Shown in pieces: positions 2 through 32,000 of a stretch of DNA of 32,000 nt (position 1 is its first letter; the number at the start of each line of letters is the position of its first letter). Under the pieces are notes generated by a model. It was not told the DNA's origin. It did no database searches and saw nothing but the letters and a program-made list of their open reading frames with translations. The DNA is taken from positions 2,610,001 to 2,642,000 of the forward strand of contig NC_008789.1 in NCBI RefSeq assembly GCF_000015585.1. The letters run 5' to 3'. The stretch comes from Halorhodospira halophila SL1 (GTDB taxonomy: Bacteria; Pseudomonadota; Gammaproteobacteria; Nitrococcales; Halorhodospiraceae). Both the position numbers and the translations under genes were made by a program.

Positions 2-448
2 GGCCTGGGCGTCGAGGACACCGATGCGCTGAGCGAGGCGGAGGGGGTCGATGACGACGCCGCAGAGTCCGACACCGGGGCCAAAGACGACTCGCCCGCC
101 GATCCGGCTGATACCGCCGGGCAGATCGCCCGCGAGGAACTCGAGTCCCTGGAACAGCAGTTTCGCGAAGATCCCGGCCAGATCACCCGCATGGTGCAGG
201 TACGGCCGGTGATGGGCGACGGCGCCATCCGGGGTTTCCGGCTCAGCGCCATGGATGACCGGGGGGCGGAACTGATGGATCAGCTCGGGCTGCGCAACGA
301 GGACGTGATCACCGAGGTGGAGGGCGTCTCGGTAGCTGATCAGCAGGGGCTGCAGTCCCTGGTCGAGGAGATGCGCGAGGCCTCGCGGGTACGGGTGCGC
401 CTGGAGCGCAACGGCAGCGAGCAAGAGATGACCCTGAGGATCGAGTAA
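2..448 (+). CDS. gspC: Type II secretion system protein GspC, C-terminal part (5' end lies outside the window)
   Basis: Frame 2 is open from the window edge to TAA 446-448. It has a PDZ-like C-terminal segment (GFRLSAM...GLRNEDVITEVEGVSV...VRLERNG). The stop overlaps the gspE ATG (TAATG). Confidence 0.6.
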   Translation, partial: GLGVEDTDALSEAEGVDDDAAESDTGAKDDSPADPADTAGQIAREELESLEQQFREDPGQITRMVQVRPVMGDGAIRGFRLSAMDDRGAELMDQLGLRNEDVITEVEGVSVADQQGLQSLVEEMREASRVRVRLERNGSEQEMTLRIE

Positions 449-1917
449 TGGACGAGATCCCCTTCGCCTTCGCCCGCCGCCACGGCCTGGTACCGCTGGA
501 GATCGGCGACGGCCAGGTCCGCGTCGCCTACCGCACCGGGGTGCAGCCGAGCGCTATCGCCGAACTGCGCCGGCGCCTGGGCCAGCCCCTGGCCCTGGAG
601 CGGGTCGATACCGAGCGCTTCGAGGCACTGCTGCGCGAAGTCTACGAACGCTCCTCCGGCGAGGCGGCACAGGCCATGGAGGGGATCGGCGACGACATGG
701 ACCTGCAGAGCGTGGCCAGCGAACTGGCCGAGCCGCAGGACCTCATGGAGACCGAGGACGACGCCCCGGTCATCCGCCTGATCAACGCCCTGCTCACCGA
801 GGCGATCAAGGAGGACGCCTCGGACATCCACATCGAGACCTTCGAGTCCCGCCTGGTGGTCCGCTTTCGGGTCGACGGCGTGCTGCGCGAGGTCCTCGAG
901 CCGCCGCCGGCCCTGGCGCCGCTGCTGATCTCCCGGGTGAAGGTGATGGCGCGACTGGACATCGCCGAGAAGCGCCTCCCCCAGGACGGGCGCATCTCCC
1001 TGCGCATCGCCGGGCGCCCGGTGGACGTGCGCGTCTCCACCCTGCCCGTCGGTCAGGGCGAGCGAGTGGTGCTGCGCCTGCTCGACAAGCAGGCCGGGCG
1101 GCTCAATCTCACTCATCTGGGCATGGACGAGCGCAACCTGGCCAGCCTCCAGCGGGTCATCCACGCGCCCCACGGCATCCTGCTGGTCACCGGGCCCACC
1201 GGCTCGGGCAAGACCACGACCCTCTACGCCGCTCTGGCCGCCATCAACGACCGCCAGCGCAACATCATGACCGTGGAGGACCCCATCGAGTACTACATCG
1301 ACGGGGTCAACCAGACGCAGATCAACCCGAAGGTGGACATGACCTTCGCCCGCGGCCTGCGCGCCATCCTGCGCCAGGACCCGGACGTGGTGATGGTCGG
1401 CGAGATCCGCGACGTGGAGACCATGGAGATCGCCATCCAGGCCTCGCTGACCGGCCACCTGGTGCTCTCCACTCTGCACACCAACACCTCCATCGGCGCC
1501 GTCACCCGGCTGCGGGATATGGGCATCGAGCCCTTCCTGCTCGCCTCCAGCCTCATCGGCGTCATGGCCCAGCGCCTGGTGCGCCTGCTCTGCCCCGAGT
1601 GCAAAACCCCGTACCAGCCGACGCCCTCCGATCTGGAGCGGCTCGGCATCGACGCCCGGGGGGAACTGCCGACGCTCTACCAGGCCGTGGGCTGCGAGGC
1701 GTGCAACCACCTGGGCTACCGCGGCCGGACCGGGATCTACGACGTGGTGGAGCTCGACCCCACGCTCCGGCAGATGATCCACGACGGCGCCGGTGAGCAG
1801 GATATGGAGCGCTACGCCCGGCGCAGCAACCCCTCCATGGCCGCCGATGGCGCACGGCGCATCCTCAACGGCGAGACCACGGTGGAAGAGGTCTTGCGGG
1901 TGACGCAGGAGGGGTAA
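448..1917 (+). CDS. gspE: Type II secretion ATPase GspE
   Basis: 489 aa. N-terminal GspE-type domain (IPFAFARRHGLV), Walker A GPTGSGKTT, Asp/His boxes, and the tetracysteine motif CPECK...CEACN typical of GspE. Confidence 0.95.
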   Translation: MDEIPFAFARRHGLVPLEIGDGQVRVAYRTGVQPSAIAELRRRLGQPLALERVDTERFEALLREVYERSSGEAAQAMEGIGDDMDLQSVASELAEPQDLMETEDDAPVIRLINALLTEAIKEDASDIHIETFESRLVVRFRVDGVLREVLEPPPALAPLLISRVKVMARLDIAEKRLPQDGRISLRIAGRPVDVRVSTLPVGQGERVVLRLLDKQAGRLNLTHLGMDERNLASLQRVIHAPHGILLVTGPTGSGKTTTLYAALAAINDRQRNIMTVEDPIEYYIDGVNQTQINPKVDMTFARGLRAILRQDPDVVMVGEIRDVETMEIAIQASLTGHLVLSTLHTNTSIGAVTRLRDMGIEPFLLASSLIGVMAQRLVRLLCPECKTPYQPTPSDLERLGIDARGELPTLYQAVGCEACNHLGYRGRTGIYDVVELDPTLRQMIHDGAGEQDMERYARRSNPSMAADGARRILNGETTVEEVLRVTQEG

Positions 1918-1990
1918 CCCGGCACCAAGCCGAACACGGGGCAGAGGCGCCCCTCCGCCCCGCAGCCTTCAGCTTGGCACGAGGCCTTCC

Positions 1991-2311
1991 TCAAGCCGGC
2001 GCGAAGACGTCGCACCAACCGTCCGCGCTGACCAGGACGTCGGCGAAGTCCGGGTGGGAACACTCGCCGTAGCCGCCCTCCACCTCGCCCTCCCAGAACC
2101 TGCAGTCCTGGCACTGCTGTCCGGCCTGGTAGCGGGCGTGGTCCTCGGCATCCGCGGCATCGCCGACGTAGTCGTGGGCGTGGCCGTCGTCGGCCTGCGG
2201 CGCGGCCGTGGCCGTGCGGTGATGCACCAGGGCACTCAGCGGGATGGCGGCGGCCATCAGCGTCGAGGCCTGCAGCAGCCGGCGGCGGTTGTGGTCGATG
2301 GATTCCGTCAT
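1991..2311 (-). CDS. High-potential iron-sulfur protein (HiPIP) with twin-arginine signal peptide
   Basis: ATG at 2311 is preceded by AAGGAG (2321-2326). Tat motif NRRRLLQAS. Mature part has the four-Cys HiPIP pattern (QQCQDCRFW...GECSHPDF...GWCDVFAPA). The longer ORF start at 2413 has no SD and no signal logic. Confidence 0.9.
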
Positions 2312-2374
2312 AACCTCGTCCTCCTTGGCTTTTTCCCACAACTTTTTGAAACCAAGGTCAGCAACCCCCTGTTC

Positions 2375-2410
2375 ACCGCCCCCGGGCAGTCGACCTGCTT
2401 CGGGGGCGGT
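2375..2410 (-). other. Intercistronic GC-rich stem-loop between the large cytochrome gene and the HiPIP gene
   Basis: ACCGCCCCCG (2375-2384) pairs perfectly with CGGGGGCGGT (2401-2410). There is an inner GCAG/CTGC extension and no U-tract on the transcribed strand. Confidence 0.4.
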
Positions 2411-2442
2411 CACTCAAAAGGTATGCCTCGACGTTCACACCA

Positions 2443-5400
2443 CTACTCTTGAGGCACCTCCAGCGGGTACTCACTGTAATTCCTCAAATTGAGATCGGTG
2501 GCTTCGTGGCCTTGAGGCGCCAGCCGCGGGGCGATCCCGCCTCGCTCCCAGATATGCCACCCGAGCACATCTCCGTCGTCCGAAGCCCCTCCCGGTCGCT
2601 CGATCCCGCCATCGTGACAGGAGGTACAGGCAGCCGAGACCGGGCTCATCTTACGGTGCGCACCGATATCGTGGATCTCCGCGTCGCTGATGAAGTAATG
2701 GATTCCATACCAGTCCCCCGTCAGGGCCGTGGAGCCGATCACGCCATCTCCCATGGCTTCGAGCGAAACCGCTGCAGGGAAGTGGCAAGACCAGCAGCTG
2801 TCCTCCCCGGCCGGGAAACTCGTCTTGTTACGGAACTCGTCTCGGACCTGCAGCGGCTCCTGGCGAAAGCCACCGCCAGCCCGGCCCGAGGTATGGACTG
2901 CGTGGATGAGACGTTTGAAATCCGTCGCCTCTTCAAACTTCCCGTCGTGCTCACCAGGCATCTTCAGTTCATCGTAGAGAGCCTTCTGGTCCGCGCCGAA
3001 CGGCGACCCCTCGAATTGCGAGCGGTCCGGCCATGCGGTATCGGTCATATTCGGGGTGTGGCAAGTCACACAGACCTGCGGGTTGTTGGTGCGATTATCC
3101 CCATGGACCGAGAGCTGCATATGGCAGCTACGGCAGCCGAGAACCCCTTGGTTTTGCTGATCGAGGGGCACGTTCTCGTCGTTCACCTCAAACTGCACGA
3201 GTTGAGCACGACCGTCCGTCGCAGCGCGTGCCGGGGTCGACCCGGGCTGGATCTCCCACTCCTGCAGCGGGCTGCCGTCGAAGGCAAAGTCCTCGGCCTG
3301 ACTCGTCAGCCTCAACTCACGGGTATCAAGAATGCCGCCGTTACCGTCTTCAATGTCCCGGGTTATGGTTCCCTCGGCTACGGCAGTTGCAACGGCCCCA
3401 GAATCCGTGAAGTCGAAATCAGCGGCGCTGTAACCGGTGATTTCCTCCCAGCCGAGCTCGACCCTGAACTCACCGCCGCCGAGTTCTTCAACTACGCCAA
3501 CCCCGGTACCAGCAGGCTCACCGCCTTCATCCGTAGCGATACTGACACTGGCGGTCGGGGCGCCAGGCTGGCGATGATCACTAGTGGAGTGAGTGTAGTC
3601 TTTGAACCCTTCGTCCATCCAGGCGAAGAAGACGCTCAGATCCAAATCCTGGTCCCAAAGATTTCCGTTGGCAGCGTCCTCGACGTAGACGACCGCCTCG
3701 AAGCCATCTTCCGTTACCTCCGGAGGACCTCCGTTAAGACCCTCGATCACCACCTCAAAGCGGTCCGCAACCATAGCGTGACGGAGGCCCTGCAGGTGGG
3801 AGCTGAGGAGATGCGGGTCATCATCTACATCGTCACCGTCAAGCGGATCATACGCTCTCAACGGTGCAAGGCTTCCAGCGGGCCCGACGCCCACATGGGT
3901 CTCCAGGTCCTCATTTATCCAGTCGCTAAGGGGCTTCGACGCACCCGCAGCGTGGCACCCGGACGAGCAGGTCTCATGCGGGGCATAAGTCGTATCTTCT
4001 TCACCGTGGCGGTGGCTCTCCAGCCAGTCTGTGCCGACATCCAAGTAGTCTGCGCCCCACAGGGCCTCTACGGGCTCACTACTATCGTTTACGTGCCAGT
4101 ACTGATCATCGTGGCACGAACGACACGCCTGCACGTTGAAGACATCGTGCCAGTTGTCTCCCTGAGCGGTTACTTCGGCGGTATCGAGCCGGTCGGCGAC
4201 GTACCCCTCCTCAAGCCCGAAGTCTTCCTCGGCTAAGTGGTCCAGTAAAGCCGCACTATCCTCGCCCTGATGGCACTTCACACAGTTGGTGATGCCCTTG
4301 TCGAAATCCGTTCTCTCCGCAACGCCCTCGCGTGCGTCGGTATTCCAGATCCCATCCTGGCCGGGCGACGGACCCTGCGGGAACCGAACCGTACTCCAGT
4401 CGCTAGCCGCCGGGGCGGCGGCCAGCAGGTCCACCTCTGCATCTCCGTCCACGCCATAGGCGGGGAGATCAGAGCCACGGTGGATGCGGTGGACGAATTG
4501 CTTGAAGTCCCCGCTGCGCCCGGACGCTGCATAAATGTGGCCCGGGTTGTGGCAAGTGACACACTGCTCAACCTCGGAGCGGTTGCCGCCGTGCTGGGAA
4601 AAACCGTTGTGGCAGCTATTGCAGCTCTCCGTGGTAACGACATTGCGCACCGCCGGGACGTCATCCCGGTCCGTGGTCTGATGCATCATATCGACCGGAT
4701 CGTAGGCGCCCGGATCGATAATCGCCGCGTTCTCGACCTTCCCCTCGATCCACGCATAGTTCGCCACCGGCTCTGGGACGAAGTCGTAGGTCTCGTTATA
4801 GGCCGTGACCCCGCTCACCTCCAGCCCGAGTCGGTGGGTATGACGGGCATCGAACTCCACGACGAACTGATCATCCTCTGTGACAAATACGCCCTGGGGC
4901 AGCGCCGTGCCATCGGGCCACCAACAGATCACTTCCTGTGTATGGATGCCGTCTTCGGTGTTGGTCTCGTCGGTGCAGTTGATGTGCTGACCCAGGCCTC
5001 CATGATCCGAGATCTCCGTAAAGGCACCGCGCTCAATAGTGAGGGTCTCGTCTACGCCAGACGCAGTAATACTGACCTGTTCGTTCTCGCGCCATTCCCA
5101 GTTCGTGAGCTCCTGGTCCTCGAGATCGACTCGGAGCGTCTCGCCGTCCACCATCTCGACCCCCGCGGTGACCGGCTCCGGCGCCGGGTAAAGCACGGCC
5201 GTATCGGCGTCACCGGCCCGGAAAGGCACGGAGTCCGCCCTGTGCGGGATGTTGAAGTAGTTCTGCCAGTCGTGGCCGATTTCGTTTTCATCGATTTCAC
5301 CGGCCGGATCGTCGTCTTCTGAAGCGCGCAACCGCGGGGAAAGCCGCGCGAACGTCACGGTGAAGTCCCCGGCTTGTCTGTCCGACAGATCCTGGGACAG

Positions 5401-5778
5401 GCTGATGGTCAACTCCGGCCCATCGTTGTCTTCGAATTCGACACGCTCGATCAGATTCTCATCCTCACCGCCGGGTATCTGATCGCGGGTTGACCCCTGA
5501 GCCAAATCGTGGACCTCGTTGATCGGCTGTGGATCCTCACCGGGCTCGTGGCAGTCGGCGCACTCCTCACTTCGCGGATCCAGATCCTCGATGTCCGCCC
5601 ATTCACCCTCATGGAAACTCGTGGCCGCGGCGGTTCCACCATCACCGCCTTCCTCCACGATCTCCGTGGTCTCGTCGCGGTCACAGGCGGAGAGGGCCAG
5701 GACCGCTGCGATGGCGCAGCTGGTGACCAGGCCCCGACGCCCATACCGTGATCGTTGTGTTGCGATGGTCTCGGTCAT
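2443..5778 (-). CDS. Large multihaem c-type cytochrome lipoprotein, OmcA/MtrC-like (9 CXXCH plus 1 CX3CH)
   Basis: ATG 5778 with AGGAGGGGG SD (5783-5791). Signal peptide ends in the lipobox LSAC. Haem motifs: CADCH, CNSCH, CVTCH, CVKCH, CRSCH, CSSGCH, CRSCH, CVTCH, CWSCH, CTSCH. The module CxSCH-x5-HG(G/D)NR-x5/6-CVTCH(N/T)P is duplicated (4540-4623 and 3049-3135). Confidence 0.85.
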   Translation of the reverse strand: MTETIATQRSRYGRRGLVTSCAIAAVLALSACDRDETTEIVEEGGDGGTAAATSFHEGEWADIEDLDPRSEECADCHEPGEDPQPINEVHDLAQGSTRDQIPGGEDENLIERVEFEDNDGPELTISLSQDLSDRQAGDFTVTFARLSPRLRASEDDDPAGEIDENEIGHDWQNYFNIPHRADSVPFRAGDADTAVLYPAPEPVTAGVEMVDGETLRVDLEDQELTNWEWRENEQVSITASGVDETLTIERGAFTEISDHGGLGQHINCTDETNTEDGIHTQEVICWWPDGTALPQGVFVTEDDQFVVEFDARHTHRLGLEVSGVTAYNETYDFVPEPVANYAWIEGKVENAAIIDPGAYDPVDMMHQTTDRDDVPAVRNVVTTESCNSCHNGFSQHGGNRSEVEQCVTCHNPGHIYAASGRSGDFKQFVHRIHRGSDLPAYGVDGDAEVDLLAAAPAASDWSTVRFPQGPSPGQDGIWNTDAREGVAERTDFDKGITNCVKCHQGEDSAALLDHLAEEDFGLEEGYVADRLDTAEVTAQGDNWHDVFNVQACRSCHDDQYWHVNDSSEPVEALWGADYLDVGTDWLESHRHGEEDTTYAPHETCSSGCHAAGASKPLSDWINEDLETHVGVGPAGSLAPLRAYDPLDGDDVDDDPHLLSSHLQGLRHAMVADRFEVVIEGLNGGPPEVTEDGFEAVVYVEDAANGNLWDQDLDLSVFFAWMDEGFKDYTHSTSDHRQPGAPTASVSIATDEGGEPAGTGVGVVEELGGGEFRVELGWEEITGYSAADFDFTDSGAVATAVAEGTITRDIEDGNGGILDTRELRLTSQAEDFAFDGSPLQEWEIQPGSTPARAATDGRAQLVQFEVNDENVPLDQQNQGVLGCRSCHMQLSVHGDNRTNNPQVCVTCHTPNMTDTAWPDRSQFEGSPFGADQKALYDELKMPGEHDGKFEEATDFKRLIHAVHTSGRAGGGFRQEPLQVRDEFRNKTSFPAGEDSCWSCHFPAAVSLEAMGDGVIGSTALTGDWYGIHYFISDAEIHDIGAHRKMSPVSAACTSCHDGGIERPGGASDDGDVLGWHIWERGGIAPRLAPQGHEATDLNLRNYSEYPLEVPQE

Positions 5779-5820
5779 CGTTCCCCCTCCTGGCGGAGTC
5801 GTTCTTATCCGGTCCAACAC

Positions 5821-7866
5821 TCAGAACTTGAAGCCCACCGATCCGACGACCAGGTGAGCGGTGTAGTCGTAGGCCTCCCGCCCCATGAGCACGAATTCGC
5901 CGTCGTCGTCGGGGTCGGGGTCGGGGCCAAAGCCTTTCATCCAGTCCTGCTCTTCAAAGCGCTGACCGACGTAGGCGAGGCGCACCCATCCGGAGTCGGT
6001 GATCTGGTGCTCGCCGTAGAGCTGGAGCTGGGTGAGACGGGTCTCGAGGGTCGGGTAGCGCTGGTCGCCGTCGGGGTCGGCGACGAGGATGTCGCTGTCC
6101 GAGGTGGCGTAGAGCAGCTCGGTACCGAGCGTCCAGCGCTGATCGTTGTCGAGGCTCGTCTCGCCGCCGACCCCGAGGGTGAGGATCTCCTCCTCCTGGG
6201 TCAGGCTGCGGTCGTCACCGCCCTGGGCGCGATCCCGCTCCTCGTAGGTGAGGAAGGCGTAACCGCTGGTGGTCTCTACCGGGAAGTAGTCGGCGGAGAG
6301 GGTGACGGCGCTGCGGTCATCGCCCTCAAGGCCGGCATCCGAGTGCACATAGTCATCCTCGAGGTAAGTGAACTCGGCACCTAGAGCAAGCTCGGGGATA
6401 AGGTGGTAGGTAGCGCTCGCACCGATATCCAGCCGCGTCAAATCGGCCATGTGGTAAAGATCGAGCTCCGGAATATTATCGGCCAGAGCCGAGCCACCCC
6501 CGGCATAGCTCGCCCCCCACCGGTCCATATACGCACCGCGCACGGTTATGCTCAGATTGTCGGTGGGCTGACTGCGCAGACGGCCGCGGTAGGTGTCTTC
6601 GATGGTTTCGTCGTCGGCGTAGGTACGATCTTTCTCCTCGTACTGGTAACCGACCATCAGATTACTGCGCATCGGCAGCCGGAAGTCCGCATCGAACCCC
6701 GCCCTGTGGCGGGTCCAGTCGTGAACGCGCGTGGAGCGGTTCATGGTCGGCAGGTCGTCCCACTGAGCCGACTGGTTGTCCCGGTCCTCGTACTCGTACT
6801 CCGCCTTCACCCGTACGCGGGGGTGGAAGCGATGTGTACCCTGGAGACCTAGACGGGTCGTATCGATCCGGCCATCGAGGTTGTTGCCGAGGACATCCAG
6901 GACGTCCTCGTAGGCCGAATCGTCGATGAAGGACTCATCCTGCTCCGCGCGCCCGTAGACCAGGCTGCCGCTGACCGACGTGCCCGGTTGCAGGGCGTAC
7001 GCCATGGAGCCACTGAACTGATGGTAGCGGTTCTCCGGGGGCCGGGACAGGCGGTGCCGATCACCCTCCTCTAGATTGGTCCAGTCATCCGCTCGGGGGT
7101 CGTCGACGTCGAAAGAGTCTCCGCTGAGCTGCGTGAACTCGGAGAGGTGATAGCCAACCCGCGCCTGGAGGGCATCACCGGCGTACTCCGCACCGAGGTC
7201 GAGCTGGTCGGTGCGCTGATCCACCGGGGCGGGCATCTGGAACCCCCGCGGCGCCGCATCGCTCCATATGCCATAGCCGCGGTACTGGTGCCCCTCCTTC
7301 TCCTCGCGGCTGAAACCAACATCGAGTTTCCAGTTGTCGCCGAGGACGCGATGGGCCCCCACCGCTGTGCGTTCACGCTGGGTGCCCACTTCCCAGTCAC
7401 GGCTGTCGGTCTCGACGTCGCCGGTCACTTGAGGCAACCGCAGATCACCCCCCTCATCCCGCAACGGGCTGACCACATCGTGATCGTAAGATCGCGGCAG
7501 CTCGTCGTACTGCAGATGCAGCCCGTAGGACCCCTGTACCCCGTAGCGGCCACGCAGGCGCCGCGAATCCAGCCCCAGATCGCGCCCCTCAAGGCGGCCA
7601 TACCGTCCTTCCTGTTCGTCCTCGCCGCGATAGCGCAGATCAAGCTCCAGGGCCGGGTAGAGCCCGTCCTCGACGGGCCCCGTGTAGCGGCGGAAGTGGC
7701 TGTTGTCCTGATCTAGATAGCCGAAGCCGAGCCAGATCTCCGACTCCGTCGGACCCACAAAGGTCGCGGAGGACTCGGGCGTGCCGGCATCGGCGCCGGC
7801 CACGATGAATAATGCCGTCGCCGATAGCGCCAGTGAGCTTCCCAATTTGGTGGTGGTTCGAGTCAT
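5821..7866 (-). CDS. Outer-membrane beta-barrel protein, MtrB/PioB family (cytochrome-associated porin)
   Basis: 681 aa. Sec signal peptide (ALFIVAGADA). Alternating Y/G/D-rich beta-strand pattern throughout. C-terminal VGFKF with terminal Phe. Lies between two multihaem cytochrome genes with 31- and 42-nt gaps. Confidence 0.8.
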   Translation of the reverse strand: MTRTTTKLGSSLALSATALFIVAGADAGTPESSATFVGPTESEIWLGFGYLDQDNSHFRRYTGPVEDGLYPALELDLRYRGEDEQEGRYGRLEGRDLGLDSRRLRGRYGVQGSYGLHLQYDELPRSYDHDVVSPLRDEGGDLRLPQVTGDVETDSRDWEVGTQRERTAVGAHRVLGDNWKLDVGFSREEKEGHQYRGYGIWSDAAPRGFQMPAPVDQRTDQLDLGAEYAGDALQARVGYHLSEFTQLSGDSFDVDDPRADDWTNLEEGDRHRLSRPPENRYHQFSGSMAYALQPGTSVSGSLVYGRAEQDESFIDDSAYEDVLDVLGNNLDGRIDTTRLGLQGTHRFHPRVRVKAEYEYEDRDNQSAQWDDLPTMNRSTRVHDWTRHRAGFDADFRLPMRSNLMVGYQYEEKDRTYADDETIEDTYRGRLRSQPTDNLSITVRGAYMDRWGASYAGGGSALADNIPELDLYHMADLTRLDIGASATYHLIPELALGAEFTYLEDDYVHSDAGLEGDDRSAVTLSADYFPVETTSGYAFLTYEERDRAQGGDDRSLTQEEEILTLGVGGETSLDNDQRWTLGTELLYATSDSDILVADPDGDQRYPTLETRLTQLQLYGEHQITDSGWVRLAYVGQRFEEQDWMKGFGPDPDPDDDGEFVLMGREAYDYTAHLVVGSVGFKF

Positions 7867-7897
7867 GGTTCTCGCGCCCTCGCCGTGATTGCAGAGC

Positions 7898-8845
7898 TCA
7901 GCGCTTGAAGAAGGCGCCGCCCGGGTGATTGGAGCCGTGAACCTCGGAGTGGCAGTTGGTACAGCCCTGCCCCCGTGTCATGAACTGCCCCTGCGACAGG
8001 CCTTCGTGATCCGGCCCAAGCAAATCACCGGGATGACCTGTGGTGACGTGACAGGACTGGCAAAGCTGGGCCGTGCGCGCCTCCAGCATGTTCGGGTGGA
8101 TCGAGCCGTGCGGGTTGTGGCAATGGGTGCAGTCTTCGGCCACCGGCTGGTGCTCCCAGAGGAACGGTCCCCGATACTCCGCGTGGCAGTTATGGCAGGT
8201 CTCATTCACCCCCCCGCCGCGGAGCATCGCGTGGCCAGTGGTGCCGTGGGGGTTGTGGCAGTCCGTGCACTCCACCTGGCCTTCCCGGACCGGATGGTGG
8301 TGCGGCCGGTTGAAGTCCACCCGACGCTCCTGGTGGCAACTGCTGCACAGCGTCAGCTGATCCTCCTCGCGGAGCAGGGTGTCGTTGTTGCTGTGCATGT
8401 TGTGGCAGTCGACGCAGGCCATGTCCTGGAACTCGTGAGCGCCACCATCCCAGTGCATGCGGTCCCCGCCGCTGTGGCAGTCCAGGCACGTCTCGTTGGC
8501 CTGGCTGGTGCTCACGTCTTCGCCGATCTCGAAGAAGTGCTCCCAGCCGTCGCCGTGACACTGGTAGCAGTAGTTGCCATCCTCTCGCGTCTGGCCCGCT
8601 GGTGTGCGTGGATCGGACCCCACGGCGTGGGGCGTCTCCTCCATGCGGCCGATGTGGGCGCGCAGATCCTCGGCACGGCGCTCGGCCACAACCGGTGAGA
8701 GACCACGCACCTCCTCGACGAGCTCCTCGAGCTGTTCGGGATCAAGGTCCTCACCCCCAGCCACCGGGGCGATCACCAGCAATGCGAAACAGGCCGCAGC
8801 GCACCCAAACGGCATCAGACGCCGGATCAGTCTTTGCGCGAACAA
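7898..8845 (-). CDS. Periplasmic multihaem c-type cytochrome, MtrA/DmsE/PioA/MtoA family (nine CXXCH motifs)
   Basis: Nine CXXCH motifs. The C-terminus CTNCHSEVHGSNHPGGAFFKR is the family hallmark. Preferred start is TTG 8845, 6 nt after AGGGAGGAG (8852-8860), which gives a normal signal peptide (FAQRLIRRLMPFGCAAACFALLVIAPVAG). An alternative is ATG 8815. The track start at 8911 overlaps the predicted promoter. Confidence 0.85.
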   Translation of the reverse strand: MFAQRLIRRLMPFGCAAACFALLVIAPVAGGEDLDPEQLEELVEEVRGLSPVVAERRAEDLRAHIGRMEETPHAVGSDPRTPAGQTREDGNYCYQCHGDGWEHFFEIGEDVSTSQANETCLDCHSGGDRMHWDGGAHEFQDMACVDCHNMHSNNDTLLREEDQLTLCSSCHQERRVDFNRPHHHPVREGQVECTDCHNPHGTTGHAMLRGGGVNETCHNCHAEYRGPFLWEHQPVAEDCTHCHNPHGSIHPNMLEARTAQLCQSCHVTTGHPGDLLGPDHEGLSQGQFMTRGQGCTNCHSEVHGSNHPGGAFFKR

Positions 8846-8895
8846 GGCGCGCTCCTCCCTATCGATGGAGTTTTGATTGTTATCAACGCCGGGAG

Positions 8896-8910
8896 GCAAA
8901 AGGCGGGCCA
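8896..8910 (-). promoter_or_regulatory. Candidate sigma-54 (-24/-12) promoter of the cytochrome-porin operon
   Basis: The minus strand reads TGGCCC-GCCTT-TTGC, with GG and GC exactly 12 nt apart as in the TGGCAC-N5-TTGC consensus. It lies about 50 nt upstream of the TTG start at 8845. Confidence 0.55.
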
Positions 8911-8989
8911 AAATGGGCCGACCGGCGTAACGGCCCCGTCATACGGGGGTTTCGATACGATTCCCGGGGACAAGACAGAGCCCTGTCGG

Positions 8990-9038
8990 GACCGCCGCGC
9001 GGTCAGGCGCTGCGCAGCGTGGTCTCAGGCTGCGCAGC
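8990..9038. promoter_or_regulatory. Array of palindromes, candidate enhancer (UAS) sites for the adjacent sigma-54 activator
   Basis: The 10-bp perfect palindrome GCTGCGCAGC occurs twice (9009-9018 and 9029-9038), exactly 20 bp apart, inside an imperfect 20-bp tandem repeat (9001-9020 / 9021-9040). It is preceded by GACCGC-CGC-GCGGTC (8990-9004). The array lies 80-130 bp upstream of the -24 element. Confidence 0.45.
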
Positions 9039-9130
9039 CGGAGATCGGTTGGGACGGCCGGCCCCTTGTGCCACCACGGCTGGGTTGATTAATGTCAACC
9101 CATTAGGGAACCGGTCGCTGGGAGGGATTC

Positions 9131-10495
9131 ATGCGCGGATGCGTCCTGGTCGTGGATGACCATCGCGAGGTGGTCTACGCCGTCCGGCGGCTGCTGCAGA
9201 GCCGCGGGCTGGAGGTGATCAGCGCCCCCTCCGCCGCCGAGGCGGAGCCGCTGGTGCCCCGGGCAGACGCGCTGATCCTGGATATCCAGCTGGAGCAGGA
9301 CAACGGCCTGGCGCTGCTTCAACGCCTGCGCAGCGCCGGGGATGAGACACCGGCGGTGGTCCTGTCGGCGCACACCTTCCCCGACAACGTGGTCGAGGCG
9401 AGCAAGCGCGGCGCGATGCAGATCCTGGCCAAGCCCATCGAGGCCGAGGCCCTGGTCGGGGCCGTGGAAGAGGCGTTGAGCCAGACGCACTCCGACGCCT
9501 CGGCGTCCGCCCTGAGCGCCGAGGCCCACGATGTGCTCGGCACCTCGGCGGCGATGATGGAGGTCTTCAAGGCCCTGGGCGTGGCCGCGGCCAACGACCT
9601 CAACGTCCTACTCACCGGCGAAACCGGGGTCGGCAAAGAGGTTTCGGCGGAGCTCGTCCACCGCCACTCCCACCGGGCCGACGGCCCCTTCGTGGCCATC
9701 AACTGCACCGCCATGCCCGAGAGCCTCCTCGAGGCCGAACTGTTCGGCCACGCCAGCGGCGCCTTCACCGGCGCCAGCCGGGCCGCCGAGGGCAAGGTGG
9801 AGGCCGCCGCCGGCGGCACCCTGTTCCTGGACGAGATCGGCGACATGCCGCTGGCCTTTCAGGCCAAGCTGCTGCGCTTCCTGGAGGACAAGCGCTTCTA
9901 CCGCCTGGGGGAGTCGGCGCCGCGTCACGCCGATGTGCGCGTGATCGCCGCCACCAACCGCCAGCTGCTCGGCGCGGACGCCAGTCAGTTCCGCAGCGAT
10001 CTCTACTACCGCCTGGCGCAGATCCCGGTGCACATCCCGCCGCTGCGCGACCGGTTGGAAGACGTGCCGGCGCTGATCGAGGTCTTCATCCGGGCGGCCA
10101 ACCAGGAGATGGGGCTGGATATCCACGGTATCACCCCCGAGGTCCGCCAACAGGCCCAGGGCCACAGCTGGCCGGGCAACGTCCGCGAGCTCAAGAACGC
10201 CGTCTACCGCGCCGCAGCGAAGCGCCAGCGGGGGCTGATCGATACCCTGGAGCTGGCCGGCGCGGCCGCCGAACCCGCCGGTGACAGCGACTTCGACACC
10301 GCCCTGGACCGCGCTCTGGACCGTGCCCTGGCCCAGGACCGGCTGCCGGAGCTGCTCAACGACCTGGAGCGCCGGGCCGTCCAGCGCGCCCTGACCCACT
10401 ACAACGGCAACAAGAGCCGGGTGGCCGAGGCCTTGAACGTCTCCCGCAACACCCTGCGCGCCCGGCTGCAGGCCATGCAGGAGCCGACGGATTGA
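9131..10495 (+). CDS. Sigma-54-dependent response regulator (NtrC family bacterial enhancer-binding protein)
   Basis: Receiver domain (VVDDH, LILDIQ, AKP). AAA+ domain with Walker A GETGVGKE, the GAFTGA loop and ELFGH. C-terminal Fis-type HTH ([16 protein letters not shown]). SD GGAGGG at 9121-9126. Confidence 0.9.
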
Positions 10496-10515
10496 GGTGC
10501 TGGCTGCCACGCAAC

Positions 10516-11970
10516 ATGGCCGTCCGGCTCGGCGCCACCTTCCTGCTGGTGACCCTGATGGTCGCCCTGCCGCTGACGCTGTGGTTCGACCACTACGCGA
10601 GGGGCATGATCGAGGCCGGCGTCGAGCGCGCCGTCGAGGGGGCCGACGCGCGGGTCATCCTCGACGCCGCGGTGGTCTCGGAGGCTTTCGATCGCGTGCG
10701 CGGCCTGGCGCTGCTGGTGGTGGGGCTCAGCGCCCTGCTGGCCGCCGGCGTCGGGGCGCTGATCGCGGCGCGCTGGCGGACGCGGATGCGCAGTATCGTC
10801 GAGCAGGGCCACCGCCGTGCCCGGCGCGCCCAGGGCGACGGCAAGCAGCCCGCGCGCTGCCCCGGCACACCCCGGCCACGCCCCGGCGAGGACGAACTGG
10901 ACGCCGTCGAGCGGCAACTGCTCAACACCGTCGACCAGCTGGGCCGCTCGCAGTGGCTGCTCGACAGCGTCGAGGACCTGGTGATGCTGGTCGACGCCGA
11001 TGGCACCATCCGCCACGGTAACGCCGCCATCGGCACACACTGCGCGAGTTGTCCGGTTCCCGACTGCATGGGGGCCACGGTGCCGGATCTCCTCGGCGGC
11101 GGACTGTGGCTGCGCATCCGCACCGGGATCGAGCGCGCCGAGACCGGGACCTTCGAGCAGGAGGTGCGGCTGGACGGGCGGTCCTGGCCGGCCCTGGTCT
11201 CCTACCGCCGTCTCGGGGAGCTGACCCTGGTCAAGATCACCGACCTGAGCGAGTACCGCCGGCTGAACGAACATCTGGAGAAGCTCCAGGCCCTCTCCAC
11301 CCTGGGCGAGATGTCCACCGAGCTGGCCCACGACATCAAGAACAGCATCGTGCCGGTGCGCCTGCTCTGCGAGGTGGCCCCGCTGGAGGCCGAAGACCGG
11401 CAGGCGATCTTCCGCTCGCTGGATCACATCCACGAGCTGGTCAATGACTTTATGGCCTTCGGCTGCGGGCGCAGCAGCGAACCGCGCAGCGGCGCTCTCA
11501 CCGAGATCCTGCAGAGCTGGACCACGGTCCTGCGCAACGAGGCCCAGGCCAAGGGCGTCTCCCTGACGGCGGCGTTCGCCGACGCGCGGGTCGAACTGCC
11601 GGGGGGCTTTCGGATCGTCTACGCCAACCTGGTGCGCAACGCGGTCCAGGCCGTACCCGCCGGCGGCCAGGTGTGGGTGGACGCCCGAGTGGATCGCCGC
11701 GACACCCTGGTGCTGCAGGTGGCGGACAACGGCCCGGGCATCCCCGAGGCGCTACGCGAGCGGCTGTTCGAGCCCTTTGCCACCAGTCGCGCCGACGGCA
11801 CTGGGCTGGGACTGCCACTGGTCCAGCGCTATGTGCAGGAGGCCGGCGGTGAGGTGGTCTGCGACTCCACCCCCGGCACCGGGACCAGTTTCACGGTCCA
11901 CTGGCCGGGGGCCGGGGAAACCACAGGCCGTACACTCACCCACCACGCCGGGATCGCCTCTGCGGGCTGA
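10516..11970 (+). CDS. Sensor histidine kinase (two TM segments, PAS-like domain, HisKA, HATPase_c)
   Basis: H-box ELAHDIKNS, N-box NLVRNAVQA, G1 DNGPGIP, F-box FEPFAT, G2 GTGLGL. Start is ATG 10516. An alternative is TTG 10492, overlapping the regulator stop. Confidence 0.85.
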   Translation: MAVRLGATFLLVTLMVALPLTLWFDHYARGMIEAGVERAVEGADARVILDAAVVSEAFDRVRGLALLVVGLSALLAAGVGALIAARWRTRMRSIVEQGHRRARRAQGDGKQPARCPGTPRPRPGEDELDAVERQLLNTVDQLGRSQWLLDSVEDLVMLVDADGTIRHGNAAIGTHCASCPVPDCMGATVPDLLGGGLWLRIRTGIERAETGTFEQEVRLDGRSWPALVSYRRLGELTLVKITDLSEYRRLNEHLEKLQALSTLGEMSTELAHDIKNSIVPVRLLCEVAPLEAEDRQAIFRSLDHIHELVNDFMAFGCGRSSEPRSGALTEILQSWTTVLRNEAQAKGVSLTAAFADARVELPGGFRIVYANLVRNAVQAVPAGGQVWVDARVDRRDTLVLQVADNGPGIPEALRERLFEPFATSRADGTGLGLPLVQRYVQEAGGEVVCDSTPGTGTSFTVHWPGAGETTGRTLTHHAGIASAG

Positions 11971-12040
11971 CGCCTTGGATCCTTCCGTATCAGGCGGCTA
12001 GGCGCTGGATGGGTCCAAACCGCTCGTGACGACACTGCCG

Positions 12041-12070
12041 TTGACACGCCACGCAGGTTTGGAGTATACT
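12041..12070 (+). promoter_or_regulatory. Near-consensus sigma-70 promoter upstream of the NYN gene
   Basis: TTGACA (12041-12046), 18-nt spacer, TATACT (12065-12070). Confidence 0.5.
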
Positions 12071-12125
12071 TTTTCCACGACTCACCCCGTGACCGCTTGG
12101 TTCGACCAAGTGCTCTCGGGGCGAC

Positions 12126-12155: not shown

Positions 12156-12166
12156 GGAGATGGGTT

Positions 12167-13578: not shown

Positions 13579-14412
13579 CTAAAGGGTCCCTTCGATACCC
13601 ACGTGCACCCCGTCTTCCCGGCGGGGCCCGGCCATCTCGATGCTGCGGGTCAGGATGTCCGCGGCGCCGTCCCGCGTATCCACGACGGCATCCAGCTCAT
13701 AGGAACCGGCCGGATCCAGCCGCCAGCCCCCGCCCAACTGAAGCGGGCCACCGGTATCGCCGAGCTCACCAACCAGCGCGCCGTCCTCGGCCCGCAGCTG
13801 AGTGGTCAGGCCGCCGAGCTCAACGTATTCGTCAACAGTGACGGCGGCGTCGTGCCAGGCGAGGCGGCCATCGACCTGCTGCAGGCGACCTCCACGGTCG
13901 ACCCGTAAGGTGTCGATGGCAAAGGCGAACGTCCCGGCGAGCAGCACTTCCTCGCCGAACTGGGCGGCCAACCGGCTCCACGGCGCCGCCGGGAAGCGGC
14001 CGTGGACATCGCGCAGGCTCAGCCCGCCGGCGGCGAGGGTCGCCCGCCCCTCGGCGAACCCGTCCCCCATTGAGGCCTCGATCGTTGCCTCCAGCCGACC
14101 GGTGAGCAGCGCCGCCGGACGGACGCGCCAGCGGATCTGCTCCGCCTGCAGGTCTGTCGTCCCGACCTGGATGCCCTGGCCGTCCCAGACGGTACCGTCC
14201 AGAGTGCCCACTTGCACCTCGGGCGGCACGGACAGGTAGCGCTCGGCCAACGACCAGGCGTGGGCCGCCGGCCAGTGCGCCAGGAGGAAGGCGCAGTAGG
14301 CACCGAGGCCCAGCACCGTGAACCCCCAGAATCGTCGCCCCGGCCACCTGAGCCGGGGCGCACCCCGGCTTCGACGTCGCAACAACCGGACCCACGGGCG
14401 GGCGGCGGTCAC
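13579..14412 (-). CDS. gspN: Type II secretion system protein GspN
   Basis: 277 aa with a single N-terminal TM segment. The GTG start overlaps the gspM stop (GTGA). Its position after gspM is as in canonical gsp operons. Confidence 0.65.
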   Translation of the reverse strand: MTAARPWVRLLRRRSRGAPRLRWPGRRFWGFTVLGLGAYCAFLLAHWPAAHAWSLAERYLSVPPEVQVGTLDGTVWDGQGIQVGTTDLQAEQIRWRVRPAALLTGRLEATIEASMGDGFAEGRATLAAGGLSLRDVHGRFPAAPWSRLAAQFGEEVLLAGTFAFAIDTLRVDRGGRLQQVDGRLAWHDAAVTVDEYVELGGLTTQLRAEDGALVGELGDTGGPLQLGGGWRLDPAGSYELDAVVDTRDGAADILTRSIEMAGPRREDGVHVGIEGTL

Positions 14413-14933
14413 GTGCCCACCTCCAGGGTCAGGCGCACGTTGACCAAGCCGTCCTCTTGCGTCCGCTCCACAGTCAAGGCATCTACCTCAACGCCGGCGG
14501 CGCGCTGCAGGCCGTCGAGCCAGTTCATGAGCTCATCGAAGGGGACCCGGTCCATCCACACCCGGAGGGTGCCATCCCCGTCCGGCTGCACCCGGCTGAG
14601 CTGATCATCGATCCCGGCCTCCCGGGCGGCCCGATCCACCAGGCTGAGCAGGGATCGCTCGTCGGTGACCGGCTCTGCCGAACCGTTATCCCCATCATGG
14701 GCGTGGATCTCTTCCGCGGCCGAGCGCATCCAGGCCAGATCCTGGCGCTGCTCGGCGACCTGAGCTTGGAGCTGGTCCCGACGCTCGGTCAACGGCTCCC
14801 AAACCGCCACGTACGGCACCACCACCAGCACCAGCAAGCCGCCGCTACCCAGCAGCCAGCGTTCCCGAGGGTTACGCGCCGACCAGAAGCGTTCAGCCTC
14901 GGCGCGGAGCTGCTGCAGCGCCTCGCGGATCAC
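14409..14933 (-). CDS. gspM: Type II secretion system protein GspM
   Basis: 174 aa. N-terminal FWSARNPRERWLL plus a TM segment, typical of GspM. The GTG start overlaps the gspL stop (GTGA). Confidence 0.8.
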   Translation of the reverse strand: MIREALQQLRAEAERFWSARNPRERWLLGSGGLLVLVVVPYVAVWEPLTERRDQLQAQVAEQRQDLAWMRSAAEEIHAHDGDNGSAEPVTDERSLLSLVDRAAREAGIDDQLSRVQPDGDGTLRVWMDRVPFDELMNWLDGLQRAAGVEVDALTVERTQEDGLVNVRLTLEVGT

Positions 14934-16162
14934 GCCGACTCCTCTTCGCGAATGACCAGGCGACCGTCCACGCGACCCTCCCGCGCCGACGCCGAGCGGA
15001 TCTCGACGGCCAGGCCGGCGTCGCCCTCCAGCGCTCTCCGCAGGCCCTCCAGGGTCTCGATGTCCACGGTATCCAGTTCCACCTCCAGGCTGCCGTCACG
15101 CAGCCGCAGGGTCCGCACCCGGAGTCCGTCGCCGGCCAGGGCGGGTGCCGCCTTGCCCAGCAGGCGGGCGAGGTGCCCGCCCCCCTCACCGCCGCGATCG
15201 CCGCGTATCGTGCGCAGGTGGTGCTCCATCTGCACCCGCGGATTGACCACCCGACCTTCCGGGAAGGTCTCCCGGTAGACCTGCTCGATCTCCGCCGTGA
15301 GCTGTTCAGCCTCGCGTTCCAGCCGCTGGACCTCCAGCCACTGCAGCGCCCCCTGACCGAGCAGCCAGACAGCGAGGAGCGCAGCCGCTGGGCGTAAGGG
15401 CCGCCATAACCAACCCCAGCGCTCGCGGCGGGCGTACGGCCCCTGGCGCAGGTCAACGGCGGTGCGCGGGTGGTACCAGGCGGCCAGACGAGGCAGGAGA
15501 TCGGCATCCACCGCCCGCGACTCCAGCTCCGGCGCCGGCTCCGCCGCTGCCGCCGCCGACTCCAGGCGCGTCTGCAGCGCCGCCGGTGCCTGCAGCGTGA
15601 GGCGCTGCGGCGGTCGCTCGGCAACGGCCAGCGCGGCCTCGAGGGTCACCGGCGCCGAGGCCGGCTCCAGGGCAAAGCCGTCCGCCCCGAGGGCGAGCAC
15701 CACCTGGTTGCGGTCCGCCTCGACGCGCCAGTGCCCGGAGTCGGCCGGGAGCAGCCCGTTTTCCGGGACCAGGGCGTCGACCTCCAGCCCCAGGGATGCG
15801 AACTCATCGAGCCACGCCTGCATGGCAGCGTGCTCGACGACGGCGGCGTGCACGCCGCCGTCCGCATCGATCCGCCGGATGGCGAAGTGCAGCGCCTCCA
15901 GATCGCTGGTCAGCTGCTCCTCCAGCGCGTACGGCAAGGCCTGGAGCACGCGCGGACGGCGCCGAGTGGGCAGCCAGACCCGGGTCACCAGGACCTGCGC
16001 CCCGGGGACGACGCCGACACAGCGCCGGCCAGCGCGGTGGGGTGCGACCACCTCCGGCCGCAGAAGACCTTGATCCAGGATCGCGCCCCCCTCGGCAACG
16101 ACGGCAAAGCGATACCGGCCATCGTCGCACCGCGGGAGCTGGATCAGCAGATACTCGGGCAT
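14930..16162 (-). CDS. gspL: Type II secretion system protein GspL
   Basis: Start MPEYLLIQLP at ATG 16162. Conserved LQALPYALEEQLTSDLEALHFA segment. Single TM segment in the C-terminal third. Confidence 0.85.
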   Translation of the reverse strand: MPEYLLIQLPRCDDGRYRFAVVAEGGAILDQGLLRPEVVAPHRAGRRCVGVVPGAQVLVTRVWLPTRRRPRVLQALPYALEEQLTSDLEALHFAIRRIDADGGVHAAVVEHAAMQAWLDEFASLGLEVDALVPENGLLPADSGHWRVEADRNQVVLALGADGFALEPASAPVTLEAALAVAERPPQRLTLQAPAALQTRLESAAAAAEPAPELESRAVDADLLPRLAAWYHPRTAVDLRQGPYARRERWGWLWRPLRPAAALLAVWLLGQGALQWLEVQRLEREAEQLTAEIEQVYRETFPEGRVVNPRVQMEHHLRTIRGDRGGEGGGHLARLLGKAAPALAGDGLRVRTLRLRDGSLEVELDTVDIETLEGLRRALEGDAGLAVEIRSASAREGRVDGRLVIREEESA

Positions 16163-16193
16163 GGGGTCACCGTACCATCGCCACTCGGCCCCG

Positions 16194-17054
16194 CTAACAG
16201 GGGCGGAGACGGCGCACCACCACTTCGCCGCTCGGGGCGTGCACCACACTGCACTGGTGGTGGAGGCGGCCGTCCACCTCCAGCCTCAGGGCCACCTGGA
16301 CGTAATCGCCCAGGCCCTCATCCCCCGGGTCCATATCCTCGGGATCCGGCAGGTTGTAAGCCTCGCGCAACCGTTCCGGCGCAGCCAGGGCGTTGAACCG
16401 GGTGCCCACCTCCGGTAACGCAGCCACATACGGCTCCAGGATGCGGTATGAGTCGGCATCCACGCCGCGGATCTGCAGCAGTTCACTGGGCACCGCCAAG
16501 GGCCGATTGGAAGGGCGGTAGGGGGGGGCCTGCCGGCTGTACCAGTCGTCTTCCACCTCGGGATCAGCCCAGTCGCGCAGGGCACGGATGACCTCATCCG
16601 GGTCCAGCCGGAAGTCGCCGTGGTCGCGGTTAAGGGCCTCGACCAGTTCGATGAAGCCGACCTCGGTCTCCTCATCCTCCTCGTCGATGAGGTTATTGAG
16701 GTTGATCCGGCAATGGAGATCTTCCAGGCGCACCTCCACGACGGCTCCCCCCACCTCTGTAGTAAAAGGCGGTGTACGACAGTCTTCGTCGAGCATCTGC
16801 GCCGCCTGATCGGTGTCGATCTGCGCCTCCTGGACCGCCTCGGCGGCCAGCGCCTCGACGCTCATGGCGTGGAGCTGCGCCTGGCTGGCCGCGTGGCTGG
16901 TCTGCGCCCGGCGCAGGTCGATCTGGTGACTGGCGGTCAGCGAGACAGCCGCCACCGAGGCCAGTGCCACCACCAGTAGGGCCGTGATCAGCGCAACACC
17001 GCGCTGAGTCCAAGGTGGAGTCTGAGGGCCAGGAATATCGCCATACGCTCTCAT
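16194..17054 (-). CDS. gspK: Type II secretion minor pseudopilin GspK
   Basis: QRGVALITALLVVALASVA prepilin-like N-terminus and GspK-type body. Start is ATG 17054 (GTG 17060 also possible). Confidence 0.8.
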   Translation of the reverse strand: MRAYGDIPGPQTPPWTQRGVALITALLVVALASVAAVSLTASHQIDLRRAQTSHAASQAQLHAMSVEALAAEAVQEAQIDTDQAAQMLDEDCRTPPFTTEVGGAVVEVRLEDLHCRINLNNLIDEEDEETEVGFIELVEALNRDHGDFRLDPDEVIRALRDWADPEVEDDWYSRQAPPYRPSNRPLAVPSELLQIRGVDADSYRILEPYVAALPEVGTRFNALAAPERLREAYNLPDPEDMDPGDEGLGDYVQVALRLEVDGRLHHQCSVVHAPSGEVVVRRLRPC

Positions 17055-17271
17055 GGTCACTCAAGCTTACACCGAGCGTCATGAAGCCGTCTCGATCCGG
17101 TCGCAGGGCGGCGTCGCCGTGCAGCGACAATCTCGAGCACTGCAGATCAGCAACTTAGCGCGCGCTCCCTGCCGTAGTGTTGCCTGACGGCGACAAAACG
17201 GGGCGCCCCGGCCTGCCTCCGCTCCGGGCCGCCGATCCTATCTTCTTGTTTTCCCGGTTTTTTACAGATGT

Positions 17272-31284: not shown

Positions 31285-32000
<716 letters not shown>

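Follow-up and report, generated by a model that had tools for sequence, protein, structure and literature searches.

The genetics of extracellular electron uptake by phototrophs comes mainly from one alphaproteobacterium, Rhodopseudomonas palustris TIE-1, and its PioABC system. PioABC consists of an MtrA-family cytochrome, an MtrB/PioB porin and a HiPIP (high-potential iron-sulfur protein) exported by the twin-arginine translocation pathway, encoded in that order. Here we analyze a gene cluster with the same components in another anoxygenic phototroph, Halorhodospira halophila SL1, which lies in a 32-kb stretch of contig NC_008789.1 that we call the window. Only the SL1 cluster adds a predicted surface cytochrome of 1111 aa, encoded between mtrB and the HiPIP gene, and its host is a gammaproteobacterial extreme haloalkaliphile. 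It also differs from PioABC in that its MtrA has nine haem motifs. Both promoter regions contain FNR/FixK-type boxes, but pioABC is controlled via two FixK boxes at a class II FixK promoter (PMC3050613), whereas the SL1 genes have a predicted sigma-54 promoter and a dedicated two-component system. From the comparisons below, we argue that the SL1 cluster may bring extracellular electrons inward to photosynthesis.

Shewanella MtrCAB (PDB 6R2Q; MtrC, 6QYC) shares with SL1 a porin, an internal MtrA-family cytochrome, a lipoprotein surface cytochrome and type II secretion genes at hand. The SL1 genes, however, run in the order A-B-C, their MtrA lacks haem 1, a HiPIP gene is adjacent, and no CymA, FccA or STC genes occur near the cluster in the window. 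The SL1 MtrC-like protein is also about 450 aa longer than its Shewanella counterpart, lacks the haem-10 motif, has an extra N-terminal motif and carries a CX3CH sequence at haem 5. A third system, MtoAB-MtoD-CymA/ImoA of Sideroxydans lithotrophicus, resembles SL1 in joining an MtrAB-type conduit to a small high-potential periplasmic carrier and is proposed to work inward. Its carrier is instead a monohaem cytochrome c, it has no surface MtrC, and its cluster includes an inner-membrane quinone reductase gene.

The SL1 cluster itself is already on record. Baker et al. (2022, mBio; PMC8805035) assign the MtrCAB of H. halophila SL1 to Group 7 of their classification (Ectothiorhodospiraceae), where its genes run A-B-C and mtrC is not duplicated, and Imhoff et al. 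(2022; PMC8877833) report that MtrABF in H. halophila has a HiPIP gene as its neighbor. The four-gene architecture has thus been published as an annotation-level remark, and the novelty claimed for it in an earlier note on this DNA does not hold. The other descriptive parts of that note fared better. Four minus-strand open reading frames (ORFs) span positions 1991-8911 in the order mtrA-mtrB-mtrC-HiPIP, and an ORF check bore out their sizes, common orientation and spacers of 31, 42 and 131 nt. Profile searches upheld all four family assignments (MtrA, MtrB/PioB, MtrC-type and HiPIP), and the note aptly describes the cluster as a hybrid that unites the surface cytochrome of MtrCAB with the HiPIP of PioABC. 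The HiPIP, the 1111-aa protein and the 681-aa protein are identical to H. halophila SL1 ABM63141, ABM63142 and ABM63143, respectively.

Other features of the cluster are undescribed: a nine-haem MtrA, an MtrC with its haem motifs in a 1+5+4 layout, predicted sigma-54/FNR control, and naturally occurring loci that have or lack MtrC or HiPIP. The main text and two supplementary files of PMC8805035 mention neither the HiPIP gene, the nine-haem MtrA and the 1+5+4 MtrC nor the sigma-54/FNR region and the mtrC-less sister loci. A literature search found no description of the two cytochrome variants, and no expression, biochemical or physiological study of the SL1 mtr-HiPIP cluster.

SL1 MtrA is a homologue of the DmsE family (233 bits against TIGR03508, cut-off 192) but not a decahaem cytochrome, since a motif count gave nine CXXCH motifs and ten were rejected. 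When it is aligned with Shewanella baltica MtrA (6R2Q chain A; E 1.5e-59), its first motif falls on haem 2, leaving haem 1 without a counterpart. In Group-7-type MtrA proteins, a conserved haem-free N-terminal segment stands in the place of haem 1. All 12 such proteins examined, from Halorhodospira, Ectothiorhodospira and metagenome-assembled genomes (MAGs) of Alcanivoracaceae and Oceanospirillaceae type, have nine motifs, whereas every full-length MtrA of other groups among 80 genome loci has ten. To judge from these proteins, the nine-haem MtrA is a clean group character of Group-7-type clusters. The long N-terminal extension that we take to be typical of PioA is absent from SL1 MtrA.

The start of mtrA is likely TTG 8845. 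We prefer it because the upstream candidate, TTG 8911, falls within the sigma-54-type element at 8895-8910 and was rejected, while TTG 8845 is preceded by a strong ribosome-binding site (GGGAGGAG) and gives a better signal peptide. The resulting 315-aa protein matches the length called on an independent assembly of the same locus. Downstream, the 681-aa product of mtrB matched both MtrB/PioB models, PF11854 along its whole length (600 bits, E 5e-180) and TIGR03509 (344 bits, cut-off 240), and by these matches it is a complete MtrB/PioB barrel.

The 1111-aa protein has an LSAC lipobox (Cys32) and two matches to PF22113, the MtrC/MtrF domain II/IV family (E 8e-42). Its score against the OmcA/MtrC model TIGR03507 is 194 bits, just below the curated cut-off of 209. 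Alignment of its family with canonical MtrC by hhalign gave a probability of 100% (E 8e-109). A Foldseek search with its AlphaFold2 model, which we used for domain order and coarse fold only since the mean pLDDT is 49.5 and the haem domains are unmodelled, returned MtrC 6QYC (E 3e-13) and UndA 3UCP as the sole significant matches. We conclude from these profile and fold matches that it is probably a lipoprotein of the MtrC/OmcA/UndA superfamily, expanded but with the usual four-domain order. Its ten haem motifs form the 1+5+4 layout: an extra N-terminal motif (C73), five in domain II of which the fifth is CX3CH (C386, C406, C499, C552 and C604), and four in domain IV (C882, C903, C995 and C1051). 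All ten are conserved in 40 homologues, a family about 1000-1150 aa in length, and the C-terminal haem-10 motif of canonical MtrC is absent.

In the MtrCAB structure, haem 1 of MtrA forms the periplasmic end of the wire and haem 10 of MtrC its distal exit. Because it is these terminal haems that are missing in SL1, both ends of the conduit differ from canonical Mtr.

The product of the last gene matches PF01355 across the full domain (E 8e-21, 74.6 bits) and carries four cysteines and the RRR motif of a twin-arginine signal. Its best matches among PDB sequences are 1PIH and 2HIP (H. halophila iso-1; E 5e-28, about 70% identity), and it matches the reaction-centre-bound iso-3 (8Z82) only weakly. 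Based on these comparisons, ABM63141 is a fourth H. halophila HiPIP paralogue, acidic, of Halorhodospira type and iso-1-like. Identity with purified iso-1 was rejected at about 70% identity, and identity with iso-3 because of the weak match. The protein is presumably not iso-2 either. A specific kinship with PioC, the HiPIP of the PioABC system, was also rejected, as PioC is not among the PDB sequence matches.

Relatives of the SL1 locus show how this HiPIP is associated with the conduit. In three assemblies labelled "H. halophila" (L085, L088 and L089; GCA_022227925.1, GCA_016653405.1 and GCA_016653275.1), the orthologous locus consists of the kinase and regulator followed by mtrA-mtrB-HiPIP without mtrC, which is the PioABC layout. 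The mtrB-HiPIP spacer in these assemblies is 65 nt, with no long hairpin apparent by eye. In L086, a metagenomic relative, two HiPIP genes in tandem are followed by gspNMLK and next by mtrABC. Another related locus, L082, encodes an MtrC that is 86% identical to that of SL1 and has no HiPIP gene; the hairpin that follows mtrC is succeeded by a convergent gspE.

Outside this lineage the association appears to be rare. A HiPIP gene is found no more than about 10 kb from an MtrC homologue in 3/80 genome loci, one of them the SL1 locus, and near an MtrA homologue in 0/80 metagenome loci; both figures are lower bounds, since the home-made HiPIP HMM and regular expression may miss very short or divergent HiPIPs. 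The H. halophila and H. halochloris loci came from exact-protein look-ups, neither having been returned by the genome scan. A metagenome scan with the nine-haem MtrA profile found only generic MtrA/MtoA/PioA relatives (≤46% identity), none with a HiPIP, and no further Group-7 loci. Because it is so infrequent elsewhere, the repeated Mtr-HiPIP association in Halorhodospira is not background. As these gene orders indicate, the link is recurrent in the lineage but modular.

Two of the surveyed loci deserve separate mention. A gammaproteobacterial MAG (L072, 3555-9520) has the order C-A-B with a ten-haem MtrA and a convergent HiPIP gene just after mtrB, an independent case. A Thioalkalivibrio MAG (L002, 1-5452) has a sigma-54 regulator and kinase with a large MtrC homologue (36% identity) directly after them. 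Its 15-kb contig showed neither mtrA nor mtrB, making this an apparent orphan large-MtrC arrangement.

Comparison with the mtrC-less assemblies suggests that the SL1 locus is a mosaic. SL1 and L085 share 89% identity in the regulator, 86% in the kinase and 85% in the HiPIP, compared with 71% in MtrA and 53% in MtrB. The G+C content at third codon positions (GC3) agrees with this contrast. It is 0.91 in the HiPIP gene and 0.91-0.94 in the flanking genes, but 0.81 in mtrA, 0.80 in mtrB and 0.72 in mtrC, whereas mtrAB of L085 is near-native at 0.87-0.88. The simplest reading of both patterns is that the regulators and the HiPIP gene were inherited vertically as a frame, within which the conduit core was replaced. 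The cassette that entered SL1 would, again most simply, have comprised mtrABC together with its terminal hairpin.

That hairpin bears on whether the four genes form one transcription unit. The 131-nt spacer between mtrC and the HiPIP gene folds at -56 kcal/mol (z -3.4). Because the hairpin, which is conserved in L082, separates mtrC from the HiPIP gene, cotranscription of the HiPIP gene with mtrABC is unproven. The earlier note described an operon that ends in the HiPIP gene. This gene is indeed last and co-oriented, but a single transcript is made less secure by the conserved hairpin and by the host-like GC3 of the HiPIP gene. Scans of positions 1800-9200, spacer included, are uninformative at about 65% G+C: no sigma-70 promoter was found, and intrinsic-terminator sites occurred at chance level. 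GC-rich hairpins without U-tracts are frequently read through. The strong hairpin between the convergent HiPIP and gspE genes is probably a terminator, one that lacks a U-tract.

The 286-bp region between mtrA and the divergent regulator gene contains several predicted control elements. The -24/-12 element is the sole zero-mismatch match to TGGCMCGNNNNTTGCH in the window, and counterparts precede mtrA in H. halochloris (12/12 positions), H. abdelmalekii, L085, L086, L088, L089 and several Ectothiorhodospira loci. With one mismatch allowed, the pattern has five matches in the window, compared with 1.1 expected by chance: the mtrA element, three on the + strand (17272-17287, 28909-28924 and 31695-31710) and one at 30220-30235. 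FNR/FixK boxes with at most one mismatch number only two in the window, both in this intergenic region, compared with 0.1 expected. The perfect box at 8873-8886 is conserved in L085, L088 and L089; it sits about at the expected start of the sigma-54 transcript, a position more repressor-like than activator-like. The GCTGCGCAGC palindromes lie about 100-140 bp upstream of the -24/-12 element. Their TGCGCA core is invariant in a four-species intergenic alignment and is likewise duplicated in L085, L088 and L089. The palindromes are candidate binding sites for the sigma-54 activator.

The intergenic elements are kept in other red Halorhodospira loci, and homologues of the regulator adjoin Group-7-type mtr clusters in both Halorhodospira and Ectothiorhodospira. 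In Ectothiorhodospira, the homologous sigma-54 activator lies 3' of mtrC with a CRP/FNR-family regulator gene beside it. In one such locus (L090, 10565-12795), the activator downstream of mtrC has no receiver domain and is followed by a divergent CRP/FNR-family gene; upstream of mtrA in L090, we found no FNR box and no clear -24/-12 element. The SL1 histidine kinase has two N-terminal hydrophobic helices and a CxxCx4C motif in its PAS region, and this cysteine cluster (HCASCPVPDC) could be a binding site for a metal, Fe-S cluster or redox cofactor. Altogether, the mtr operon is predicted to be under the control of a sigma-54 promoter, FNR/FixK boxes and the divergent two-component system.

In SL1, the island between the two type II secretion operons holds a β-barrel gene, an NYN-domain gene, the kinase, the regulator, mtrABC and the HiPIP gene. 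L082 has a full gspD-F-G-H-I-J-C-E set at the place corresponding to SL1 gspE, and H. halochloris and L086 have the same gsp neighbors as the SL1 gspK-L-M-N operon. The Shewanella type II system exports MtrC and OmcA, and by analogy the flanking gsp genes probably encode the export machinery for the surface cytochrome. Moreover, gsp genes accompany the mtrC-bearing loci of SL1, L082, H. halochloris and L086 and are absent from the flanks of three mtrC-less loci. This co-variation, taken from single loci, is suggestive of surface display.

Besides mtrA and mtrC, the window has a single c-type cytochrome gene, for a dihaem cytochrome c4 (18563-19303, + strand); no gene for a CymA/NapC-type quinol dehydrogenase or another multihaem protein was found there. 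The cytochrome c4 gene stands beside a small GTPase gene (17858-18478), and the pair is syntenic in all red Halorhodospira loci examined. Cytochrome c4 could be an alternative periplasmic carrier, or the pairing may simply be housekeeping synteny. The NYN-domain ORF (12026-12823, + strand), a weak match, has a GC3 of 0.65, lies in a stretch of 60% G+C (12001-13000) and is possibly a small insertion; L085 and L088 list no called gene with an NYN match at the equivalent place. Beside the kinase gene, a small outer-membrane β-barrel of about 200 aa is encoded at 12955-13569 (+ strand), and a counterpart of similar size is kept in L085 and L088 and probably in L083 and L086.

Table. Features of the mtr-HiPIP locus and its borders, in order of position in the window.
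Feature	Position	Strand	Evidence
gspE, last gene of a type II secretion operon, converging on the HiPIP gene	448..1917	+	T2SSE, E 1e-156
Strong hairpin between the convergent HiPIP and gspE genes	1922..1981	-	fold -51 kcal/mol, z -4.45
HiPIP gene, 106 aa, twin-arginine signal NRRRLLQ, ABM63141	1991..2311	-	PF01355
GC-rich hairpin (ACCGCCCCCG...CGGGGGCGGU) between mtrC and the HiPIP gene	2375..2410	-	RNA fold, L082 alignment
mtrC, MtrC/OmcA-type lipoprotein cytochrome, 1111 aa	2443..5778	-	PF22113, lipobox, ten haem motifs
mtrB/pioB, outer-membrane β-barrel, 681 aa	5821..7866	-	PF11854, TIGR03509
mtrA, MtrA/DmsE-family periplasmic cytochrome, 315 aa from TTG 8845	7898..8845	-	TIGR03508, nine CXXCH
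Perfect FNR/FixK-type box TTGAT-N4-ATCAA, just downstream of the sigma-54-type element	8873..8886		pattern scan
Sigma-54-type -24/-12 element TGGCCCGCCTTTTGCC upstream of mtrA	8895..8910	-	match to TGGCMCGNNNNTTGCH
Two GCTGCGCAGC palindromes, 20 bp apart	9009..9038		only two copies in the window
Second FNR/FixK-type box TTGACATTAATCAA, 1 mismatch, beside the regulator gene start	9085..9098		pattern scan
NtrC-type sigma-54-dependent response regulator, divergent	9131..10495	+	Pfam Response_reg, Sigma54_activat, HTH_8
Membrane histidine kinase with PAS, partner of the regulator	10492..11970	+	HATPase_c, PAS_4, HisKA
gspK-L-M-N, second type II secretion operon, converging from the other side	13579..17060	-	Pfam T2SSK, T2SSL, T2SSM, T2SSN

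Given these results, the reading we prefer, with roughly even confidence, is that the cluster forms an inward electron-uptake conduit feeding photosynthesis via a dedicated HiPIP. Type II secretion would place the MtrC-like protein on the cell surface, where it would be reduced by a donor outside the cell. The most plausible donor would be Fe(II) or Fe-S mineral phases, or a cathode standing in for them. The electrons would cross to the periplasm via MtrA inside MtrB and reduce the HiPIP, which would pass them to the photosynthetic chain at the reaction-centre cytochrome, directly or via other HiPIP isozymes. The scheme would follow the logic of PioABC with an added surface module. We infer the inward direction because sister strains have the Pio-type layout, because the HiPIP association is rare elsewhere and because no quinol dehydrogenase gene lies nearby. 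Redox potentials also favor it, since HiPIP iso-1 (+110 mV) and iso-2 (+50 mV) lie below the special pair at about +270 mV (PMC11724841), making transfer from a HiPIP to the reaction centre downhill. Further support comes from the FNR/FixK boxes, which parallel the FixK control of pioABC (PMC3050613), and from Imhoff et al., who independently proposed Fe(II) oxidation based on the HiPIP adjacency (PMC8877833).

Several considerations weigh against this reading. Soluble Fe(II) is expected to be scarce in sulfidic soda brines, which puts the natural donor in doubt. In characterised systems, the Mtr haems have low potentials, which would make transfer from a HiPIP to them uphill and so favor inward flow, but the haems of the divergent SL1 MtrA and MtrC may differ. 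The conduit also does not need a HiPIP carrier, as HiPIP-less Group-7-type clusters attest. H. halochloris has the two-component system and mtrABC with no HiPIP gene at the locus, and its genome is without any HiPIP gene (PMC8877833). No adjacent HiPIP gene was seen in most Ectothiorhodospira or in any of the marine Group-7-type clusters examined, and alignment with L082 shows the 2375-2410 hairpin kept, a HiPIP segment of about 445 nt missing and mtrC as the last gene. The EET (extracellular electron transfer) activity of H. halophila is given as 'ND' in PMC8805035, and our literature search found no report of Fe(II) oxidation or electrode uptake by Halorhodospira. Finally, the H. halophila HiPIP bound to the reaction centre in a cryo-EM structure is iso-3, not the ABM63141 paralogue (PMC11724841). 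The earlier note's path from HiPIP to photosystem stands in part. The sister A-B-HiPIP loci strengthen the functional link between Mtr and HiPIP, but direct donation to the photosystem is at most something we infer, because the bound isozyme is iso-3 and ABM63141 is about 70% identical to iso-1.

A more specific form of the inward reading, which we advance tentatively and consider somewhat unlikely, concerns all Group-7 conduits. They would be a structurally distinct, 19-haem type of Mtr, rewired at both ends and adapted to inward flow, handing electrons to high-potential carriers; in red Halorhodospira, the fourth HiPIP would then feed the reaction centre. At the periplasmic end, MtrA would have lost entry haem 1 and gained the haem-free N-terminal segment for docking. 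MtrC would have lost distal haem 10 and gained an N-terminal haem, with CX3CH at the haem expected to face MtrA.

Electrons might instead flow outward as in Shewanella, from bc1 through HiPIP and MtrA to an extracellular acceptor, in order to dispose of excess reducing power or to support dark anaerobic maintenance. We consider this unlikely. Type II secretion and a surface lipoprotein cytochrome are both found in the reductive Shewanella system, and FNR-type boxes fit anaerobic respiratory control. However, a carrier at +50 to +110 mV is poorly suited to reduce Fe(III) phases at pH 9-10, and to our knowledge metal respiration is unreported for the host, an obligately anaerobic phototroph. The window also lacks a CymA- or NetBCD-type quinol dehydrogenase near the cluster, and the sister strains hold mtrAB and HiPIP without MtrC in the layout of the oxidative Pio system. 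To the credit of outward flow, characterised MtrC-bearing clusters are reductive, MtrC has been discussed as a possible determinant of reductive capacity (PMC8805035), and HiPIP is the natural bc1 acceptor in H. halophila (PMC8877833, PMC11724841). A different objection is that the HiPIP gene is an incidental neighbor: a resident, separately transcribed paralogue beside a foreign mtrABC cassette that replaced an older mtrAB and brought its own terminator. The SL1 conduit would then use other carriers, such as the cytochrome c4 encoded 10 kb away. The conserved hairpin after mtrC, the HiPIP-less L082 with its closely similar MtrC, the drop in GC3 from HiPIP to mtrC, the low MtrB identity to the A-B-HiPIP strains relative to the 85-89% of flanking genes, and the Group-7-type clusters without adjacent HiPIP in H. 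halochloris, Ectothiorhodospira and marine MAGs are all consistent with such a history. It is nevertheless improbable in our judgment. The HiPIP gene came through the exchange with position and strand unchanged and its reading frame intact, three different arrangements within the lineage show the association, hairpins of this kind are often read through, and the promoter scan, uninformative as it is at this G+C content, detected no sigma-70-type promoter of its own for the HiPIP gene.

The donor could also be extracellular elemental sulfur, with the inward conduit specialised in its re-oxidation. The host deposits sulfur outside the cell, its re-uptake has been described only in general terms, and a surface cytochrome might contact the solid. 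Sulfur oxidation, however, requires sulfur-atom chemistry beyond the withdrawal of electrons, and polysulfide solubilises sulfur at alkaline pH. Clusters of the SL1 type are also seen in MAGs labelled Alcanivoracaceae and Oceanospirillaceae, groups that are not phototrophic as far as we know. Moreover, mtrCAB is found in 2/7 Halorhodospira and 2/7 Ectothiorhodospira genomes (PMC8805035), although external sulfur is a family-wide trait. This distribution, within each genus and among apparently non-phototrophic MAGs, gives the sulfur donor named in the earlier note no specific support, and we regard it as very improbable.

Since the basic gene arrangement was already in the literature, the value of these observations lies in their details, through which the direction of Mtr-type conduits becomes experimentally approachable. 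What part MtrC plays in setting that direction is a question raised explicitly in PMC8805035. Halorhodospira offers a natural experiment for it: the same locus, regulators and HiPIP, with or without the surface cytochrome and the flanking secretion genes. As concrete structural variants, the nine-haem MtrA and the 1+5+4 MtrC merit structure determination. If the 19-haem proposal is true, SL1 would be the first purple sulfur bacterium, and the first extreme haloalkaliphile, with an extracellular-electron-uptake route for photosynthesis, and comparing it with the A-B-HiPIP strains would reveal what the surface cytochrome contributes. If the inward reading is true, mineral- or electrode-driven photosynthesis would extend to the purple sulfur bacteria of hypersaline soda lakes, and the fourth HiPIP of a model organism would gain a function.

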